The position numbers and the translations under genes are program-made. The notes beneath the pieces were generated by a model. That model was given only the letters and a program-made list of their open reading frames with translations, was not told the origin of the DNA and ran no database searches. From assembly GCA_045545475.1 (NCBI GenBank), contig JAZQAZ010000015.1, positions 1-64,000 on the forward strand: a stretch of 64,000 bases of DNA, given 5' to 3'. The stretch comes from Clostridia bacterium. GTDB lineage: Bacteria; Bacillota; Clostridia; CAKSNL01; HGM11501. Of this stretch, positions 41,488-48,980 are shown piece by piece (within the stretch, counting starts at the first letter, position 1; every line of letters starts with the position of its first letter).

Positions 41488-43491
41488 TTATTTTATAACA
41501 TTATCTTCGAATATGGAATTGGCACCCTTTTTAGACACCATTCTTTTTCCTATTATTACATTATTTCTTACAATATTATTATCCGATGTACCGGCTTCCA
41601 CTATCGCCTTTGAACCTTCTGGAATATCAATAGTACAGTTTTCAATGACACAGTCTGTAAGATTTATAATATATATAGCAGGAGTAGAACCCAGACTTTG
41701 TGAGGTTTTAATTGTAAGTCCTTTTACAATAGCTCCGCTGTTATTAACAGCCACTCTGCGGTTTACAATGCCTCCGACTATCTCTTTTGCACTCTTTATA
41801 CTTGTCCCAGCCACTCCATCGTTTATATAGATTTCTGTATTATAAACTTTATCCATCTTACTTATTCCTACAGGGAAAGCACAATTTTTTATAATACATC
41901 CCGAAACCGTGGAATTTGTATAATTACTCTGATAAATCGCTCCTGTTTTTGACTCTGCCCCAGAAAGTCCTACACCATCCATCAAAACATTTTCAAAAAG
42001 TAAATCCTTCGAGGTATTGAAAAGAACAGCATTCTGACAGTTTTTTAAGGTCCCGTCACGCACTATTACTTCTGAAGACCCAATTATTTTTATGGCAGTA
42101 TCTTTTATTTCTTCGCAAAAGAAATTATTGATTAAAATATTTTTATTATTTTGCGAACTGGTTGTATCAACCACAGCATTGACATTTACAACCTTCATAT
42201 TTGATATTGTTACATTTTCTTTCGTGCCTTTGCCGGAAAATCTAACCCCCACATTGCATCCCGCTACACTGTTATTATCTATTAAAACATTAATAATATC
42301 TCCACCTGGTGCGCCTATATTTATTGCATTTCCACGTATATTTTTAATTTCATTATTTCTTATTATAACATTTTTCACTGCCGTACCTTTCACCAGTGAT
42401 TCCACGGCTATCCCGAAATTCCCCTTGCCTTCTATGGTTCCGTCCACAACATTATTTTCAACAATCGCACCGTCGCAGCCGTCTCCTACGGAAATCGCAC
42501 CGCCGGCAGAGCCTGCCCCGGGGCTATTTATTACAATGTTGTCGTGAATATATGCATCTTTGCAAAAAACAAGATCCAAAGCCTCGTCTCCCACATTGTT
42601 TATTTTGCAATTTCTGTATGTTGCTCTCACAGTATACTGTATATCAAAGCCGTGAGTTTCCTCTTTGGTGCCGTTTTTTTCTATAGTCCACGCATGATTA
42701 ACAGGGTCAGTATCATATACTCCCATATCAGAAAATGTGATATCGTGCAAGTATTCGCTTTCGTTTTCTGGCTTTCTTTCAGGTTGTATTCTTACAGCAA
42801 CCCAACTTCCGTTTGTTTCCCAATTTTCAAGATATTTAATTACAGATTTGTCTCCGCCATCACCTAGTACTGTCAATCCTCCTGAACCATTAGGCAGACT
42901 TATATACATACCGCCTTCCAGAATCCCGTATTCACCTTCAGGGAAATACACCGTTGCAGGCAGATTATCTACAGCATATGCGAATGCATTTAAAATCGCT
43001 TCCTTATCGTCAGTTAAGCCATCACCAACAGCCCCAAAATCTTTAACATTAACCATTTGTTCTCTACTGTATATATGTACTTCTTTTTTTGTGTTGTCCC
43101 ACTTTACTATACAATCAAAGGCCTCACTTATAGCTCGTACAGGCACCATCGTTCTCGAATCAATCAGTTTTGCAGGGACATCAAGAACCTTTACCTCTCC
43201 ATTTACTGTAAGCTCCGATGCCTCTATTTTTATAGAAACATTTTTATCTTCTTTTTTAGCGGTTACAGTCTTTGTTTTATCATCCCAAAATACCTCAGCA
43301 CCTAATTTTTCAAAAATTTTACGCATTGGAACCATTGTGCGTCCGTCAATAATTACAGGTTCTACATCAAACTCAAGTTTAGTGTTGTCAATAAAAACTC
43401 CGAGACTCTCGTTCGCGTAAACTGACACCATAGAACCACCCAATAAAAGAAAAATCACAATAAAACATACCATTTTTCTCATTTTATTCAT
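41488..43491 (-). CDS. Secreted protein: N-terminal stalk (copper amine oxidase N-terminal) domain + pectate_lyase_3-type right-handed beta-helix
   Basis: Signal peptide; DVEPVIIDGRTMVPMR..RTMVPVRAISE; VNVKDFGAVGDGLTDD..VYFPEGEY; Asn/Ile-rich repeats; SD AGGAGG at 43505-43500. Confidence 0.82.
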   Translation of the reverse strand: MNKMRKMVCFIVIFLLLGGSMVSVYANESLGVFIDNTKLEFDVEPVIIDGRTMVPMRKIFEKLGAEVFWDDKTKTVTAKKEDKNVSIKIEASELTVNGEVKVLDVPAKLIDSRTMVPVRAISEAFDCIVKWDNTKKEVHIYSREQMVNVKDFGAVGDGLTDDKEAILNAFAYAVDNLPATVYFPEGEYGILEGGMYISLPNGSGGLTVLGDGGDKSVIKYLENWETNGSWVAVRIQPERKPENESEYLHDITFSDMGVYDTDPVNHAWTIEKNGTKEETHGFDIQYTVRATYRNCKINNVGDEALDLVFCKDAYIHDNIVINSPGAGSAGGAISVGDGCDGAIVENNVVDGTIEGKGNFGIAVESLVKGTAVKNVIIRNNEIKNIRGNAINIGAPGGDIINVLIDNNSVAGCNVGVRFSGKGTKENVTISNMKVVNVNAVVDTTSSQNNKNILINNFFCEEIKDTAIKIIGSSEVIVRDGTLKNCQNAVLFNTSKDLLFENVLMDGVGLSGAESKTGAIYQSNYTNSTVSGCIIKNCAFPVGISKMDKVYNTEIYINDGVAGTSIKSAKEIVGGIVNRRVAVNNSGAIVKGLTIKTSQSLGSTPAIYIINLTDCVIENCTIDIPEGSKAIVEAGTSDNNIVRNNVIIGKRMVSKKGANSIFEDNVIK

Positions 43492-43510
43492 ACCAAAACC
43501 CTCCTGAAAT

Positions 43511-43720
43511 AAAAAAATGCCCCAACCGAAGTCAGCGCAAAAAAAGGCAAACTCCGATTGTCGCCAAACAAATTGAATAACATGGGATATTTTATATATC
43601 GCTGCTATCTGGAGTGTTGCATTTTTAACAATATAAAATAGCAGCATTACAAGAAAAGGGTATAATACTCCCATGAAATAAAATACCCCTATTTCTTGCT
43701 TTTTATTCAATTTGTTTGGC
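43511..43720 (-). ncRNA. Unclassified structured 5' leader / small RNA with tandem intrinsic terminators
   Basis: Perfect 18-bp IR 43563-43580/43703-43720, nested stems, two hairpin+U7 elements, directly after a sigma-A promoter. Confidence 0.6.
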
Positions 43721-43726
43721 AAAAGC

Positions 43727-43755
43727 ATTATATCACACATATTATATTTTTGCAA
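43727..43755 (-). promoter_or_regulatory. Extended -10 sigma-A promoter driving the leader RNA and beta-helix gene
   Basis: TTGCAA(43755-43750)-17 bp-TATAAT(43732-43727) with TGn extension. Confidence 0.75.
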
Positions 43756-43861
43756 CAAATTTATTTTTATTTCAAACAACTATTGACAAATGAGTAAAAA
43801 AACGTTTAGGGACTTCATCGTGCCGAATAAATCGGCAGAATAATTGAGTAGTATAGCATAA

Positions 43862-43899
43862 AAAATGATGGCAGACGCTTTTATGTCTACCATCATTTT
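43862..43899 (-). terminator. Terminator ending module 2
   Basis: AAAATGATGGCAGAC...GTCTACCATCATTTT. Confidence 0.8.
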
Positions 43900-43902
43900 C
43901 AT

Positions 43903-46320
43903 TTATTTAGTAATTGTAATTTCCTGAGTCTCTCCGTTCCACTCTACGTTATATCCGAGCTGTTCAGAAATAAATCTTACAGGAATGAAGGTTCGGGAAT
44001 CCTTGATTTTAGGCGGTACGTTAAGAGTATATCTTACTTCCTTACCCTTTGAATCAATGATATAAACGCTTCTGGACATAATCTGCATTTCGATTATTGT
44101 TCCGTCCTTTTCGATTAATATCTGCTGAATATTTCCGTTCCATTCAATTGTTGCGCCCATTTCCTCTAAGAGTCCTCTTAAAGGAATAAGGGTGTAGCCT
44201 GCACCTGCAATGTAAGGAGCAACGTCAATCGTTCTTACAGAATCAACTCCGCCTTTATGGGACTTAATCTCGTTTGAACCGATTTTAAGGATGTAGCTTT
44301 CCTTTTCATCCTCTGCCCTCTGCTCTGCTGAATTGGTGCTTTCATAGAAGGTGATTTCAGCACAGCTTGCTCTTCCGTCATTACCCTGATTGATGTAGAA
44401 ACGGATGAATCCTGCATGTATGGGTTCATCAAACCTTATAACCTGCTCGCCCTTTTTCTTTTCAAAGGTTAAAAGCTCCTTTGCGATTTTGTAATTTTCA
44501 CCATCAACGGAGTAAAGCACGTCAAAATCAAGCCACAAGCCGTGATAGTCATCTGACTGACGAGGAAGCACGTTAATCTGTGCCACATAGTAATTGTCGT
44601 TTAAGTCAATATCTAAAACGTAGGGCCCTTCAACCTTGGTTGTCTGCCATACAGATTGGGGTGAGCCGTCAACCACCGCAGAAACCTTACCTGTATCGGG
44701 CCACTGCAAAGGAGCATCGCACTTTGCTGTCATTCCCTTTTTAGGAATTGCGATAAGGCCGCCTTCTTCGTATGCCGCTGCATAATCCTTCGGCTCAACA
44801 ATTGCCATATTGGGATCATACGGTTTAAGATTAAGCTCGGCACAAGTTCCGTAACCGCCGGCACCGTCCAGAAATTCAAGCTTCAAGGCGTCAAGCTTTA
44901 CGTTGAAGGACCACTCGGAATTCTTAAGTCCCATATCGTTTGCCCATTCACCGCCGCCGATCAAATATTCCTCTCCGCCCAAAATTGCATAGGCGTTATA
45001 TTTGAATATTCTTCCCGACTTTATGTTGTCCTGTCTGGGGGTATAGGTAAAGCCGCCGATTGTAACTGTGCCTGGAAGGGTTATTGTTACATAGAAGGGT
45101 GGGTTGTCCTTTGAAAGAATGGTGGAGCCGGATGCTTTATAGTTTGTGTGCCAGTAGGTGGAGCTGTCACCGTCAATCATTTTCTCGGCTGTGTTGTTTC
45201 CGATGTGGCTTGATGCCTTTATTTTCCATTCGGACTTGTCGGGGATGAAGCCGGGTTCATATTCCTCACGGGGGCCCATAAGTTCAGCCTTTTCCTCGGC
45301 AGACTTGATTTCGTCAATATCTTTCTTCGTCAAAATGTCAATTTCCCCGCAGGTGCCTACTCTTCCCGTTGTCGATCTGAACACAAGGCGGATTCCCGCG
45401 ATTTCCGTTTCCTTCCAAGAAACAACTTCAACAGTTCTGTCACCAATAAAGGTGCCCGATGCAAGCTTTTCACCCTGGGCTGTACCGGAAAGTGCGTATA
45501 CATCATAGTCCTTTATATAACCTGTATCGCTGGTCTGTCTTGGAGTATAACGTATACCTGCAGCCTTAACTCTGGCAGGTAGGTTTATGTCAATTGTAAA
45601 GGGGGCAGGATCTGTTGTGTCAACCTTTCCATCCTTTACAGTGTACTTTGAGTGCCAGTAAGTCACAGGATCGCCGTCTATCATTTTTTCTGCTTTTTCT
45701 GTGTTAAGCTCGCTTGATGCCTTGATTTTCCAGGTGGATTTTTCCGGAACAGTTTCCACCAAAGGAAGCTTTGCCGCATCGTTGGCAGATGCCATTTCCG
45801 CGGGGCTTATAAGGTCAATTTCCGCACAGGTTCCGACACCGCCCGATGCCACCGTACTTGTGAAAATTATTCTTATGCCGGAAAGATTAACGGCATCCCA
45901 GCTGAAAGTTTCGATTGTATCGTCTCCAACAAATGTGCCCTTTGCAAGAAGCTTTCCCTGAGTTTCGCCCGAAAGCTCATAAAATTCAAAGCCCTTTACA
46001 TAGCCCGTGTTGCTGTTCTGTCTCGGAGTATAACGGATACCTGCAACAGTTGCCTCGGAAGGAAGGGTAATGTCTATTATATAGGGAGGCTGAACCTTGT
46101 TTACAGCCTTTCCGTCTTCCGTGTCGTACTTGGAGTGCCAGATAGTATCTGTTTTTCCGTCAATCATCAACTCTGCCTTGCCCCAACCCATTTCCGTGTT
46201 GGCGGTAATTTTCCAGGTGGACTTTTCGGGGATTGGCAAATCTTCTGCACTTATATAAAGTACACTTACAGTTGAAAGCACTAAGATAAGAGAAAGCATT
46301 AAGCTTAAAATCTTTTTCAT
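43903..46320 (-). CDS. Secreted protein: 4 discoidin (CBM32-like) domains + C-terminal stalk domain
   Basis: Signal peptide from ATG 46320; WHSKY, WHSKY, WHTNY, WQTT units each with PRQ and C[AG]E; TLIPLRGLLEEMGA tail. Confidence 0.85.
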   Translation of the reverse strand: MKKILSLMLSLILVLSTVSVLYISAEDLPIPEKSTWKITANTEMGWGKAELMIDGKTDTIWHSKYDTEDGKAVNKVQPPYIIDITLPSEATVAGIRYTPRQNSNTGYVKGFEFYELSGETQGKLLAKGTFVGDDTIETFSWDAVNLSGIRIIFTSTVASGGVGTCAEIDLISPAEMASANDAAKLPLVETVPEKSTWKIKASSELNTEKAEKMIDGDPVTYWHSKYTVKDGKVDTTDPAPFTIDINLPARVKAAGIRYTPRQTSDTGYIKDYDVYALSGTAQGEKLASGTFIGDRTVEVVSWKETEIAGIRLVFRSTTGRVGTCGEIDILTKKDIDEIKSAEEKAELMGPREEYEPGFIPDKSEWKIKASSHIGNNTAEKMIDGDSSTYWHTNYKASGSTILSKDNPPFYVTITLPGTVTIGGFTYTPRQDNIKSGRIFKYNAYAILGGEEYLIGGGEWANDMGLKNSEWSFNVKLDALKLEFLDGAGGYGTCAELNLKPYDPNMAIVEPKDYAAAYEEGGLIAIPKKGMTAKCDAPLQWPDTGKVSAVVDGSPQSVWQTTKVEGPYVLDIDLNDNYYVAQINVLPRQSDDYHGLWLDFDVLYSVDGENYKIAKELLTFEKKKGEQVIRFDEPIHAGFIRFYINQGNDGRASCAEITFYESTNSAEQRAEDEKESYILKIGSNEIKSHKGGVDSVRTIDVAPYIAGAGYTLIPLRGLLEEMGATIEWNGNIQQILIEKDGTIIEMQIMSRSVYIIDSKGKEVRYTLNVPPKIKDSRTFIPVRFISEQLGYNVEWNGETQEITITK

Positions 46321-46334
46321 TTTTGTCCCTCCCC

Positions 46335-48980
46335 TTATAAAATTTCCGCAGCCTTTAATACTGCATCCACATTTATTTCTCCGCCGCTTATTGCAAATGT
46401 ATCTCCATTTACATAGGCTTTCCAACCGAACACCTCGGTTAAATAGCTTAAAGGAATGTATCTTAAGCCATCTACTACCTTAACGGGAGCAGAAAGTGCC
46501 ACTACCGCACCGTTCTTTCTTGCTTCCATACTTCCAACGATGGTGTATGACCAGATATGGTCAACAATTTCTATGCCCTTACGGTTATAATTTGAAACAT
46601 ACTGAGCATTATCCTCTGCATAATATTCCGTCTTTGTTTCGCCGTAGCCCATTATATCTTCCACAGCAAGTTCCGGAACGTAAAGTGTTCCGTTTTCCAT
46701 AAAGGCGGTGATTCTTGTATCGGCGTCATAAATATTCATTTTACCGCCCGATACCACCATTTTATTACTTCCAGCCTTAAATACCGCTGTATCATTAAGT
46801 GCCACCCTTGTATCATCATCAAGAGAAACCTGGGCAATTTCGGTGTAAAGATAGTTAAAGCGTCCATTGGGTGCAACGGATCCAAACTCGTAAAATCTTA
46901 ATACATCGCCGTTTTCTTCTGCATTGTCGGCAACCTTGAATTCAAGGTCAATTGCACCGGTTTCGCCTATCATCTCTCTTGTAAGAGCGAATATAACGCT
47001 CTTACCATTTATCTTTACTTCTGCATTTCCAACTGCGTTCCATGTGCCGTTATAGGAAGAAACATTACCGTCACCTGCAATAAGGTAGTCATAACCTTCC
47101 CATCCTGTCGCATAGTTACGGTCGGTATTTAAGTAAATGTGAAGCTTTGATGTATCCGTAACCTTCGCTTCTGCATCTACCTTTATGTAGAGCTTTGCGT
47201 CATCACGTGCCATTTTTGCACCGGTGATTACGTTTACATAGCTTGTTACATAGTGGAAGTTTTCGCCCGTCTTATAGTTGATGAGTCCGTATTCATCACG
47301 TTCTTCGCCGAAGTTATCGTTGATAAATTCCGGGCCAACGTTATCCCACTGGGAAAGGTCACCTGCGATATCTATGGTCTTATCCTCTGTTGCAAGAGGT
47401 GCAGGACGAACACCCTTATATTTTCTTACAAAGTCGCAAAGTAAATTATAATAGTCATCTCTTAAAGGACCTCTGGATGGCTCAAAGTCACGGCTTCCCT
47501 CATCGTCAAAGGAGTCAACAAAGGAGTTATCGTGGCCTGAATACTGAGCCTGTCTTCCCGCAGTCCACTCGTTCCAGCCGTCAACATAGATAAATGCAGG
47601 ATCTTCCCTTAGTGCCTGAATAGCCTCTTCCCTGAAGAAGTAACCCATATTCGTTGCGCCTTCTCTGTAGTCCTCGCCGAAGCCTTCTGTATAGCTTCTT
47701 CCCTTGGTGTAAGGATCGGAGAATACGCAGGTATGACTCCAGCCGTCAACATAGGATTCGTTTACTCCGGTACCCACAACCATAAATTCCGTTCTTCCGT
47801 CTTCTTCGGTGTTCCACTTGGTTAAGGGAGAAGCCTGGAGCCAGTGCCAATAGCGGTCGCCTCCCACATATTCAACGGGCTCACGGGAACCTGACATACG
47901 GAATGTGTAAAATTCAAAAATTTCTCTTATATATGCTGTTTCGTCAAGCTTTTTTGTATCAAGATTGGTAGACCACTTGGAGTTGTTACCAAACATAAGG
48001 GGCTTACCGTCCCACTCATACCAAAGATCTTTATATCTTTCGTTTTCAAAGAAATATGTATGGACATTTACAAGCTGAGTACGTCGCTGGGAATGGTCTA
48101 CATACCAGGAGTTAAGAGCATTAATCTTGGGAACACGGATTCCGTCCGCCTTTGCATCGGCATATGCCTCGCAGAGAAGATTAAGTGTCTGTCCGCCCGA
48201 AGCAGTACCGTTTGACCAGTCAAAGAAGATTACGTCAACGCCTGCATTTGCAAGCATAATGGCGTGGCGGCGGATTACCCAGTAGTCGGACATCATATAG
48301 TAGCCGAACAAGGGCTCGTTCCAGTAGTAGGCTGTTGCACCCTCCGGCCATGCCTCGTGATAGAAATCATCATATGCATCGGGGTGTGCAGCTATAATTT
48401 CCGAGGGAATTCTTGCTGTTGTTATGGGCTTTTCCTCCGATCCCCTGAGCCAGTACATCATACCGACCTGGCGCATTCCCTCTTTAACGGGTCCAACCTC
48501 TTCAAAGTCAGCCACCTTAACGCCTGCGGCACTTGTCGCAACCCAGGTGTCCGAATAGTTATCGATGAGGCAATCATCTGACGGAATGGTGTAGGGGCTT
48601 ACATACTTTTCCTTGGAAAATGTAACGGATTTAATTGCCGCTCTTCCGATATGCGCCGTTACATAAACGTCATGTACTCCTGAAATTTCTCTGATATTTG
48701 AGGAGTATTCCGTTATGCGATTGTCGCAGATTCTTAAAAATGTAATAATATGTCCTCCGTCTGCCTTATCTGCCGTAATTCTCAAGGTTGCTTCGCTGTA
48801 TGAATCAAGTGTAACCTTTACGGACTTTATGTCAGTAAGGTCAACCTTTTCAAAAACAACGCTTTCCCCCTCCTTGATGCTTTTTGAAACATCAAGAACT
48901 GTTTTTGTCCCTTCTGCAAATGACGGTATCATAGATAAAACCATCAGAAGCACAAGAAACAAAGCTGCAAGTTTTTTCAT
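46335..48980 (-). CDS. Secreted CBM6-like + GH99/GH71-like + divergent stalk-domain protein (paralog 2)
   Basis: SDTWVATS, YWNEPLFGYY, AGVDVIFFDWSNG, DGWNEWTAGRQ, FVDSFDDEGSRDFEP, YYNLLCDFVRKYKGVRP. Confidence 0.7.
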   Translation of the reverse strand: MKKLAALFLVLLMVLSMIPSFAEGTKTVLDVSKSIKEGESVVFEKVDLTDIKSVKVTLDSYSEATLRITADKADGGHIITFLRICDNRITEYSSNIREISGVHDVYVTAHIGRAAIKSVTFSKEKYVSPYTIPSDDCLIDNYSDTWVATSAAGVKVADFEEVGPVKEGMRQVGMMYWLRGSEEKPITTARIPSEIIAAHPDAYDDFYHEAWPEGATAYYWNEPLFGYYMMSDYWVIRRHAIMLANAGVDVIFFDWSNGTASGGQTLNLLCEAYADAKADGIRVPKINALNSWYVDHSQRRTQLVNVHTYFFENERYKDLWYEWDGKPLMFGNNSKWSTNLDTKKLDETAYIREIFEFYTFRMSGSREPVEYVGGDRYWHWLQASPLTKWNTEEDGRTEFMVVGTGVNESYVDGWSHTCVFSDPYTKGRSYTEGFGEDYREGATNMGYFFREEAIQALREDPAFIYVDGWNEWTAGRQAQYSGHDNSFVDSFDDEGSRDFEPSRGPLRDDYYNLLCDFVRKYKGVRPAPLATEDKTIDIAGDLSQWDNVGPEFINDNFGEERDEYGLINYKTGENFHYVTSYVNVITGAKMARDDAKLYIKVDAEAKVTDTSKLHIYLNTDRNYATGWEGYDYLIAGDGNVSSYNGTWNAVGNAEVKINGKSVIFALTREMIGETGAIDLEFKVADNAEENGDVLRFYEFGSVAPNGRFNYLYTEIAQVSLDDDTRVALNDTAVFKAGSNKMVVSGGKMNIYDADTRITAFMENGTLYVPELAVEDIMGYGETKTEYYAEDNAQYVSNYNRKGIEIVDHIWSYTIVGSMEARKNGAVVALSAPVKVVDGLRYIPLSYLTEVFGWKAYVNGDTFAISGGEINVDAVLKAAEIL

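Follow-up and report, generated by a model that had tools for sequence, protein, structure and literature searches.

The locus treated here raises the question of what kind of RNA would be made from a strongly structured segment on the reverse strand of a Clostridia genome, at positions 43,511 to 43,755 of the first 64,000 nucleotides of contig JAZQAZ010000015.1 (assembly GCA_045545475.1; this whole stretch is hereafter called the window), just upstream of a gene for a beta-helix protein. An initial annotation, made from the sequence alone, had seen there a structured leader of no recognized family, an attenuator or possibly a stand-alone small RNA (sRNA), and in this broad sense it holds, given that Rfam offers no match for the element and that its homologues show covariation. 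The element is one copy of a large and widespread family of leader RNAs of gut Clostridia that has no match in Rfam 15, and the function that we consider fairly probable for it would be that of a cis-acting conditional terminator, in other words, of a self-contained expression cassette operating at the RNA level. Its parts, in the order in which they would be met by the polymerase, are the following, all on the reverse strand:

43862 to 43899, reverse strand: hairpin and T run closing the upstream gene (43906-46425), an inverted repeat with 15-nt arms, 93% complementary; it marks the 5′ limit of the cassette.
43727 to 43755, reverse strand: promoter, with the -35 box TTGCAA at 43755-43750, a 17-nt spacer, and the -10 box TATAAT at 43732-43727 preceded by TG.
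43703 to 43720, reverse strand: 5′ arm of the closing stem P1, GCCAAACAAAUUGAAUAA, forming a perfect 18-nt inverted repeat with 43580-43563.
43581 to 43702, reverse strand: variable middle domain, containing P2 (43698-43650) and P3 (43645-43601) in the minimum free energy (MFE) fold.
43611 to 43626, reverse strand: M1, made up of an A run and the 3′ strand of the P3 apical hairpin, AAAAAUGCAACACUCC; family consensus AAAAAUGCAAAUUCC.
43563 to 43580, reverse strand: 3′ arm of P1, UUAUUCAAUUUGUUUGGC, known from the inverted repeat and from covariation in the family.
43539 to 43560, reverse strand: M2, the putative switching strand, CAAUCGGAGUUUGCC at 43560-43546 followed by U run 1 at 43545-43539; the most conserved block of the family.
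43511 to 43538, reverse strand: predicted terminator T2, GCGCUGAC-UUCG-GUUGGGGC, then A and U7.
41488 to 43505, reverse strand: ribosome-binding site AGGAGGG (43505-43499), ATG (43491-43489) and the gene that would be controlled, assigned from sequence and Pfam.

Four Helices and Their Covariation

The interpretation is carried by the behavior of four helices across the family. An alignment of 123 members, from which a covariance model (R1) comprising P1, the apical hairpin, M2, and T2 was built, has 96.6% of its cells paired in P1, the apical hairpin, and T2 taken together, and 19 of the 31 pairs are changed on both sides (388 cells); when the partner columns are slid, the paired cells fall to 31–42%. 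The covariation score of these helices is 0.342 vs. 0.140 in shuffled controls, and none of 500 shuffles reaches it, a comparison that, like the other shuffle controls given here, overstates significance because the sequences compared are related to one another; most members were, besides, gathered through the motifs under study. Taken separately, P1 is paired in 95.4% of cells, with 10 of its 14 pairs changing on both sides, and T2 in 98.9%, with 6 of 10 pairs doing so. Of the tandem terminators initially proposed, it is this second hairpin (43538-43519 and its U7) that stands as the terminator of the family, whereas the first (43565-43539, with another U7) is not a terminator: it has only about 5 bp, is not kept as a hairpin in divergent relatives, and its 3′ strand and U run constitute the M2 half of a long-range helix.

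M2 can be divided accordingly, at least in the window copy, where 43560-43552 form the 5′ strand of an antiterminator and 43555-43541 pair with M1. In the family as a whole, the 5′ part of M2 (C-W-R-U-C-G-G-A-G) pairs with a stretch that runs from the final base of the T2 5′ arm through the loop into the top of the 3′ arm (C-U-U-C-G-G-Y-W-G), and it is because bases of T2 are used in it that this helix is called an antiterminator; in the window these bases are 43531-43523 (CUUCGGUUG). The antiterminator is paired in 97.4% of cells, with 47 cells changed on both sides and a score that 0 of 500 shuffles reach. Its double changes are found mostly in the W:W pair (UA 49, AU 44, UG 19, unpaired 11), and in the divergent locus L280, where CWAUCGGAG and CUUCGGUWG are replaced by CAAUUAAGGA and UCCUUAAUUG, the pairing survives a full rewriting of both strands. 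On the transcribed strand, G.U greatly exceeds A.C in P1 (58 to 8), in T2 (229 to 1), and in the antiterminator (279 to 11), and these are therefore RNA helices of that strand rather than DNA palindromes. A conserved terminator with its U tract and a conserved alternative helix sharing its bases, which is the combination that would define an attenuator, are thus present in T2 and the antiterminator, insofar as sequence comparison can indicate.

To the fourth helix M1 contributes its A run and 3′ strand, and M2 its 3′ part and U run (AAAAAUGCAAAUUCC with GGAGUUUGCGUUUUU). Its complementarity is kept with wholly different sequences in divergent loci of sister genomes that were found by R1: GCAGACUU with AAGUCUGC in L271; GUGUUU-U-CCUU with AAGGAAACAC in L272 and L283; the same pairing plus a 2x2 U.U internal loop in L280; CUCUGAC with GUCAGAG and a second segment in L273; GCAUGCUCU with GGAGC-U-AUGC in L276; GUAGGCUCU with GGAGCUUGC in L279; and GCAGGCUC with GAGCC-A-UGC in L270, to which L282 is added. 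Since M1:M2 and the antiterminator both use the GGAG of M2 (AAGGA in L280), they are mutually exclusive. The median energies in 200 members are -4.0 kcal/mol for the apical hairpin, -16.9 for M1:M2, -10.4 for the antiterminator, and -14.7 for T2.

The switching elements had at first been drawn elsewhere, and the conserved long-range pairing proves to be that of the P3 apex (43626-43611) with the strand that follows P1 (43555-43541). As for the pseudoknot suggested between CAUGGGA and UCCCAUG, the two strings are complementary (7 bp, -11.2 kcal/mol), but nothing in the relatives supports their pairing, and UCCC can alternatively pair with GGGG (43689-43686) within a 10-bp helix that matches the P1 extension of other members. 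The covariation that was looked for among homologues is found for the closing stem, T2, the antiterminator, and the divergent M1:M2 helices, and not for this loop pairing.

Distribution and Novelty of the Family

When scored with R1, the window copy (43512-43720, reverse strand) reaches 148.5 bits over model positions 1–214, a match that is partly by construction because this copy is among the 123 training rows. A second copy, also a training row, reaches 167.8 bits (G000:C15:99702-99898, reverse strand; about 1510-1706 in locus L002); it lies on the same contig, 56 kb away and outside the window, has its own promoter, and precedes a gene for a 362-aa lipoprotein-like protein without a Pfam match. 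These two are the only copies in the genome. R1 gives scores on the opposite strand of the rod as well (window 43563-43720, forward strand, 39.9 bits; L260:1522-1673, forward strand, 88.5 bits; model positions 1–162), which is an echo of a near-palindromic rod and not a second gene.

Within the taxonomic family of the bacterium, the element is carried by 10 of 14 genomes according to BLAST and by 11 of 14 according to the covariance model, and 35 of 151 genomes drawn evenly from the class, belonging to 27 of 107 genera, are positive with R1. One genome contains at least 14 copies by the same model, a lower bound, as scoring was limited to 15 candidates per genome. A pattern scan of species-representative genomes with the 3′ motif gave at least 120 loci, and the matches listed were all, by their record titles, in metagenome-assembled genomes of Clostridia, with Oscillospiraceae, Acutalibacteraceae, Christensenellaceae, Lachnospiraceae, Ruminococcus, and others among their taxa and human, ruminant, and rabbit guts among their sources; the apical motif gave at least 119 loci in metagenomes. 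In four gut or faecal metagenome assemblies, the summed contig depth over the 3′ module (43542-43585) is 300–766, vs. 2–5 on the flanks, and the module is common to many organisms in those four samples. Plasmids gave 0 matches in 72,556 records, phages one partial match in an unannotated faecal phage record, and viral contigs four matches by pattern, all of them full-length by R1.

The comparison with Rfam covariance models, which the initial annotation had proposed as a check, returned no family match in the window, at the site, or on eight relatives. More precisely, at the gathering score nothing in Rfam 15 matches the element in a search of the whole 64-kb window; around the site, at E ≤ 10, there are only chance-level matches, the best being fstAT with 17.7 bits vs. 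a gathering score of 72 (E 2.5); and in the eight relatives, at E ≤ 0.1, none falls on the element, the only sub-threshold matches being on other strands or in other places. When full texts of the literature were searched for M2 or its complementary sequence, in DNA or RNA letters, only unrelated papers matched; the motif is absent from the searched supplementary files of PMC8040213, a set from which files 7 and 8 were left out, and the main texts of the 2026 bioRxiv preprints consulted contain no passage on Clostridia or antitermination. The family may already be listed, without a name, in the supplements of motif-discovery papers. As far as Rfam 15 and the literature searches reach, the family itself, its four-layer relay, its fixed promoter of its own, and its multi-copy spread before unrelated accessory genes appear to be undescribed; the kind of device, that is, a transcription attenuator made of alternative helices, is already known.

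Common Anatomy and Downstream Genes

The promoter holds a fixed position with respect to the RNA. Among 201 distinct members whose upstream sequence was long enough, 189 have a -10-like hexamer ending 5–8 nt before the first paired base (exactly 6 nt in 160), and 157 of these 189 promoters have a TG extension and 158 a -35 box. The predicted first base of the RNA is G in 123/123 aligned members, and the first two pairs of P1 never co-vary (GC in 123/123, CG in 122/123) while 10 of the 14 P1 pairs do, which suggests that the first bases of P1 are constrained both as a start site and as a helix.

After P1 there is a variable extension, and 187 of 189 MFE folds then show a multi-branch junction from which a short P2 and a long P3 project. 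No part of the RNA is less conserved than this junction, and there are divergent members that are plain rods without P2 and nevertheless retain the relay. GGnnnAnUAUACCC together with a U run makes up a conserved P2-like motif, and P3 is capped by the conserved hairpin GAAUUUG-AUAAAAAUG-CAAAUUC(C). M2 is near-invariant (GAC-W-AUCGGAGUUUGCG) and is followed by a run of 5–6 U, the UUCG-capped T2, a second U run, and the ribosome-binding site. M1, for its part, is nearly invariant in the 123-member alignment, and an M1-like motif is found in 111 of the 114 loci that were collected via M2 alone, the remaining 3 having a variant.

Two irregular cases were seen. One is a short form (L014/L275, G004:C3:57628-57743) that passes from the promoter to a remnant of the P1 3′ arm, M2, and T2, with no rod and no M1, and precedes a superinfection-immunity-like gene. 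The other concerns the fragmented assembly of the close relative G002, where contig C345 (L004) ends 38 nt past the P1 5′ arm and contig C177 (L013) begins 3 nt before the P1 3′ arm, with an A.G mismatch between the arms; the hairpin or a mixture of strains may have caused the assembly to break within the element.

A co-oriented ribosome-binding site and open reading frame (ORF) follow within 200 nt in 178 of 193 members, and in 131 the gene lies at most 40 nt past the U tract, which leaves no space for another promoter. The downstream genes are mutually unrelated and often related to the envelope: by a crude rule, 58 of 113 have a signal-peptide-like N-terminus, 17 of these 58 with a lipobox. 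Of 87 N-terminal fragments, 52 have no Pfam match, and those of the others are spread over many domains, among them BspA-type leucine-rich repeats, zinc ribbons, SPFH, AMP-binding, MazE/AbrB-like, dockerin, collagen, Ltp lipoprotein, and superinfection immunity, without a common pathway.

The Copy in the Window

The promoter read from the start as TTGCAA-17-TGnTATAAT, with the 18-bp stem beginning at 43720, is present as stated: its boxes match 10 of 12 consensus positions, it is the top site of a promoter scan across 43000-44300, and the inverted repeat is perfect. Between the end of the -10 box, 43727, and the first base of P1, G43720, the distance is that of the family, and from the position of the promoter transcription would start at G43720. 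Elsewhere in the window the P1 18-mer has no further sites, the two arms being the only ones at up to two mismatches.

The proposed stems also belong to a strong fold. The 221-nt RNA has an MFE of -79.1 kcal/mol vs. -42.7 ± 4.5 in 200 shuffles (z -8.08, with 0 shuffles as good), and P1, P2, and P3 are all included in it. An alternative helix of 10 bp and -13.1 kcal/mol is available in the middle domain, between GGGGUAUUUU (43689-43680) and AAAAUAUCCC (43594-43585), and the layout of 16 members that were folded agrees with it as a P1 extension.

In the 3′ module, M1:M2, interrupted by a bulged C and a U.C mismatch, has -13.3 kcal/mol, and the antiterminator (43560-43550 with 43533-43523) -13.9 kcal/mol, this being the MFE structure of the module. 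T2 has only -9.0 kcal/mol, because of a G.G mismatch that is not present in the close relative G002; with its terminator weakened in this way, the window copy probably leans toward read-through, as judged from the folding energies. A simple terminator scan of 43000-44300 returned 0 terminator-like sites.

The downstream protein matches Cu_amine_oxidN1 (2.6e-39), Pect-lyase_RHGA_epim, and Beta_helix in Pfam and has an N-terminus that is signal-peptide-like by the crude rule; the upstream ORF matches F5_F8_type_C and Cu_amine_oxidN1. The latter domain is thus shared by both genes flanking the leader (41488-46425, reverse strand); it sits at the N-terminus of the beta-helix protein and at the C-terminus of the F5/8 type C protein, an arrangement that suggests a cluster of proteins acting on or binding carbohydrates at the cell surface.

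A leader peptide was rejected, as the AUG of M1 has no Shine-Dalgarno sequence upstream and is ACG in 27–28 of 123 members. Upstream of the gene start, the frame stays open for a median of 24 codons, and in only 4 of 144 members is it open as far back as +1; in the window the beta-helix frame is open for 96 codons through the whole leader (43779-43492, reverse strand), which makes this copy an outlier of the family and is probably due to chance.

Proposed Mechanism

The helices described above, which are conserved, co-vary, and exclude one another through shared bases, can be arranged into a succession of events whose start site, termination, read-through, and trigger we infer from the sequence. 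A strong sigma-70 promoter would start transcription at the first base of the closing stem, and the first ~158 nt would fold into a stable rod or three-way domain presenting M1 at its apex. M2 would emerge next, having two mutually exclusive partners. If M1 were held in its weak apical hairpin, M2 would be free to seize the emerging T2 loop, and the antiterminator formed by M2 with the loop and 3′ arm of T2 would block or delay the terminator, in such a way that the polymerase would pass the U tract into the gene. If, on the contrary, M1 were available, M2 would pair with the M1 3′ strand in an anti-antiterminator, itself trailed by a U run, T2 would form, and transcription would stop 20 nt before the start codon. 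The relay would thus consist of four layers: apical hairpin, M1:M2, antiterminator, and terminator.

If a guess is made at the trigger, the best candidate would be some factor or condition by which the apical hairpin is opened or occupied, with a protein or an RNA preferred to a small metabolite. The variable junction, the existence of plain-rod members, and the lack of a shared downstream pathway favor such a macromolecular or physical input over a metabolite pocket.

Several observations weigh against this relay. M1 is placed at the apex of a helix of ~25–31 bp-equivalents and M2 starts 7–9 nt from the base of that helix, so that a cis M1:M2 pairing with the rod intact is sterically doubtful; in the MFE folds, the lengths of the P1-side and P3 arms differ by a median of 6 bp-equivalents and are hardly correlated (Pearson r 0.12, p 0.11). 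In the main family, M1:M2 is 99.2% paired, has no change on both sides, and does not exceed shuffles, covariation being invisible there because the columns are near-invariant, partly through the motif-based collection; its covariation is that of about ten divergent members read by eye. Seven metagenome members have GGAGUCUGC facing an unchanged M1, which produces a C.A mismatch. Finally, there are tandem arrays of complete units without intervening genes, and these fit the role of an sRNA better than that of a leader.

Alternative Explanations

The arrays lead to the most serious of the alternatives, to which we would give perhaps one-in-five weight in the sense of an unlikely though real contender, namely that the elements are stand-alone, multi-copy sRNAs of ~200 nt ending at T2, in which the exposed, A-rich apical loop and M1 of the finished RNA find their partner in trans, either in the M2 of family transcripts that are still being made or in other targets. 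Attenuation would then be exerted by a sense RNA acting as its own antisense, with the downstream genes expressed by read-through only. Each unit of an array has its own promoter and terminator and a gene follows only the last, as in G088:C6, where there are three scored units and the end of a fourth; the copy number of at least 14 in one genome and the steric difficulty of the cis pairing are further points in favor of such sRNAs. Apical loops, moreover, are the usual sites of RNA-RNA kissing, as is known from plasmid countertranscripts, and the short form in G004:C3, which retains promoter, M2, and T2 and lacks rod and M1, could be read as a target only, since the same genome holds a full copy with the consensus M1. 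On the other side, the gene start lies at most 40 nt past T2 in 131/193 members, and the RNA is therefore a leader in most loci; M1 or a variant of it accompanies M2 in every one of the 114 loci collected via M2; no tandem neighbors of the main type were seen among the 193 members; and, because every finished RNA carries both M1 and M2, sRNA copies would titrate each other. A more ambitious version, which we regard as improbable, posits a self-referential network of RNAs, where each transcript would have an antisense-like loop (M1) and a target (M2), and finished leaders would force termination in trans on those nascent transcripts that belong to their own specificity group. If this were true, the pool of free leader RNA would couple dozens of surface and accessory genes in each genome that are otherwise unrelated, and the subfamilies with different M1 and M2 that are seen in one genome (G001, G004) would be orthogonal groups, in the manner of plasmid incompatibility groups.

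With regard to the arrays themselves, the one mentioned occupies G088:C6:111018-111681 (L296), and others are found in G141:C125, G041:C14, G088:C23, and G088:C2; the spacing is ~57 nt and neighbors differ in M1 and M2. Just 5′ of the first there is a drum RNA (Rfam RF02958, 76.3 bits vs. a gathering score of 43) at L296:705-822, forward strand (G088:C6 about 110690-110807). A dependence on Hfq was rejected, as there is no Hfq match in the genome of the window or in 5/5 sampled genomes of its family, and Hfq is present in only 9 of 35 RNA-positive genomes of the class. The identity of the element with 6S RNA was also rejected: the single RF00013 match of the genome is at C15:112625-112807 (reverse strand, 95.1 bits), on the same contig outside the window, and none is found at the element even at E ≤ 10.

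The remaining explanations are less probable. A metabolite or second-messenger riboswitch, whose aptamer would be the three-way junction domain and whose expression platform would be the M1/M2/T2 relay, has in its favor the P1-closed structured 5′ domain, the conserved P2-like motif, and the terminator and antiterminator; yet P1 (43580-43563) does not overlap the antiterminator strand (43560-43552), the junction is the least conserved region and rod-only members without P2 keep the relay, the downstream genes have no common pathway, and no Rfam aptamer matches the window, the site, or the eight relatives. The classical riboswitch that had been entertained for this locus is thus not what is found, neither a conserved ligand core nor a P1 or core strand competing with the expression platform being present, and we consider a riboswitch very unlikely. 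We are just as skeptical of a constitutive cassette for expression and stability, in which a strong promoter would be combined with a 5′-terminal stem protecting against 5′-end-dependent decay and the alternative helices would have no regulatory role. It is known that 5′ stems stabilize Firmicute mRNAs, and here nearly all members have their inferred RNA start at the first paired base, no covariation occurs in the first two pairs of P1, and the location is before unrelated accessory genes, all of which would suit such a cassette; it leaves unexplained, however, why a strong terminator stands between promoter and gene in every member and why an antiterminator and an anti-antiterminator co-vary with it. 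Lastly, an invertible DNA switch of the cwpV type, or a mobile repeat resembling a miniature inverted-repeat transposable element (MITE), could be imagined from the perfect 18-bp inverted repeat between the promoter and a secreted-protein gene, from the fact that the flipped orientation would put CUUUUUAUU after P2, and from the contig breaks of G002 inside the element. Both were rejected and we give them almost no credence: the orientation of M1 relative to the promoter is constant in every member aligned or inspected; the excess of G.U over A.C in P1 denotes an RNA helix of one strand; in four metagenome runs there are contigs that span both arms in the reference orientation, and joints with a change of strand are absent, although contigs can miss rare variants; and there are only two copies in the genome and no plasmid matches. 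In one metagenome run, two contig joints (43572 to 43711 and 43573 to 43654) skip 138 and 80 bases of the core, with matched sides of 24–27 letters and 90% likeness, and they probably stem from shorter variants in other organisms.

Relation to Known Systems

The conditional terminator that we favor can be compared with several known devices. In the pyr attenuators of Bacillus subtilis there is a PyrR-dependent chain of terminator, antiterminator, and anti-antiterminator, and, in the proposed scheme, both systems are 5′ leaders of Firmicutes in which mutually exclusive helices set an intrinsic terminator and the antiterminator loses its 5′ strand to an anti-antiterminator lying upstream. The present family differs in having an extra layer, as an apical hairpin would in turn sequester the anti-antiterminator strand; in the distance of the captured strand, which is ~70 nt away across a long rod; in that no PyrR-type binding loop was seen, although no search was aimed at one; in preceding unrelated accessory and envelope genes rather than those of one pathway; and in being multi-copy and always provided with its own promoter. 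With the platforms of riboswitches and T-boxes it shares a P1-closed 5′ domain, a competing antiterminator and terminator, a U tract, and the ribosome-binding site, whereas it has no Rfam match to a riboswitch or T-box, its P1 lies outside the switch, its core is variable and can be a plain rod, and the downstream functions are not common.

In plasmids such as pT181 and pIP501/pAMbeta1, transcription attenuation is driven by countertranscripts, the regulator being an antisense RNA from the opposite strand. There too an RNA-RNA pairing 5′ of a terminator decides whether the terminator is formed, and a stable stem presents the recognition loop; in the present family, in contrast, the complementary strand is within the same sense transcript, an action in trans would be conjectural, and no plasmid matches. 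The cwpV-type switches of Clostridioides difficile have inverted repeats between the promoter and a surface-protein gene, and a terminator sets their OFF state; the element of the window has the repeats, the surface-protein gene, and the terminator, but no sign of inversion, and its repeat acts as an RNA helix with strand-specific G.U and compensatory changes. A rod-like RNA of ~200 nt with a closing stem made of its 5′ and 3′ parts is likewise reminiscent of 6S RNA, of which Firmicutes can carry two copies; however, the element is unmatched by RF00013, and a clear 6S RNA is encoded elsewhere in the genome.

Implications

The mechanism is directly testable through the helices listed and through compensatory variants, and the cassette could potentially be used as an expression or regulation module for organisms that are hard to engineer. 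If the interpretation as a conditional terminator is true, a device made of a promoter, a stabilizing 5′ stem, and a four-layer terminator relay would have escaped the catalogs, and a large share of the uncultured Clostridia of gut and rumen would run many unrelated genes, among them envelope, lipoprotein, zinc-ribbon, and phage-defense-like genes, through one portable RNA device. The input signal, once identified, would then expose a global control of surface and accessory genes in gut commensals.

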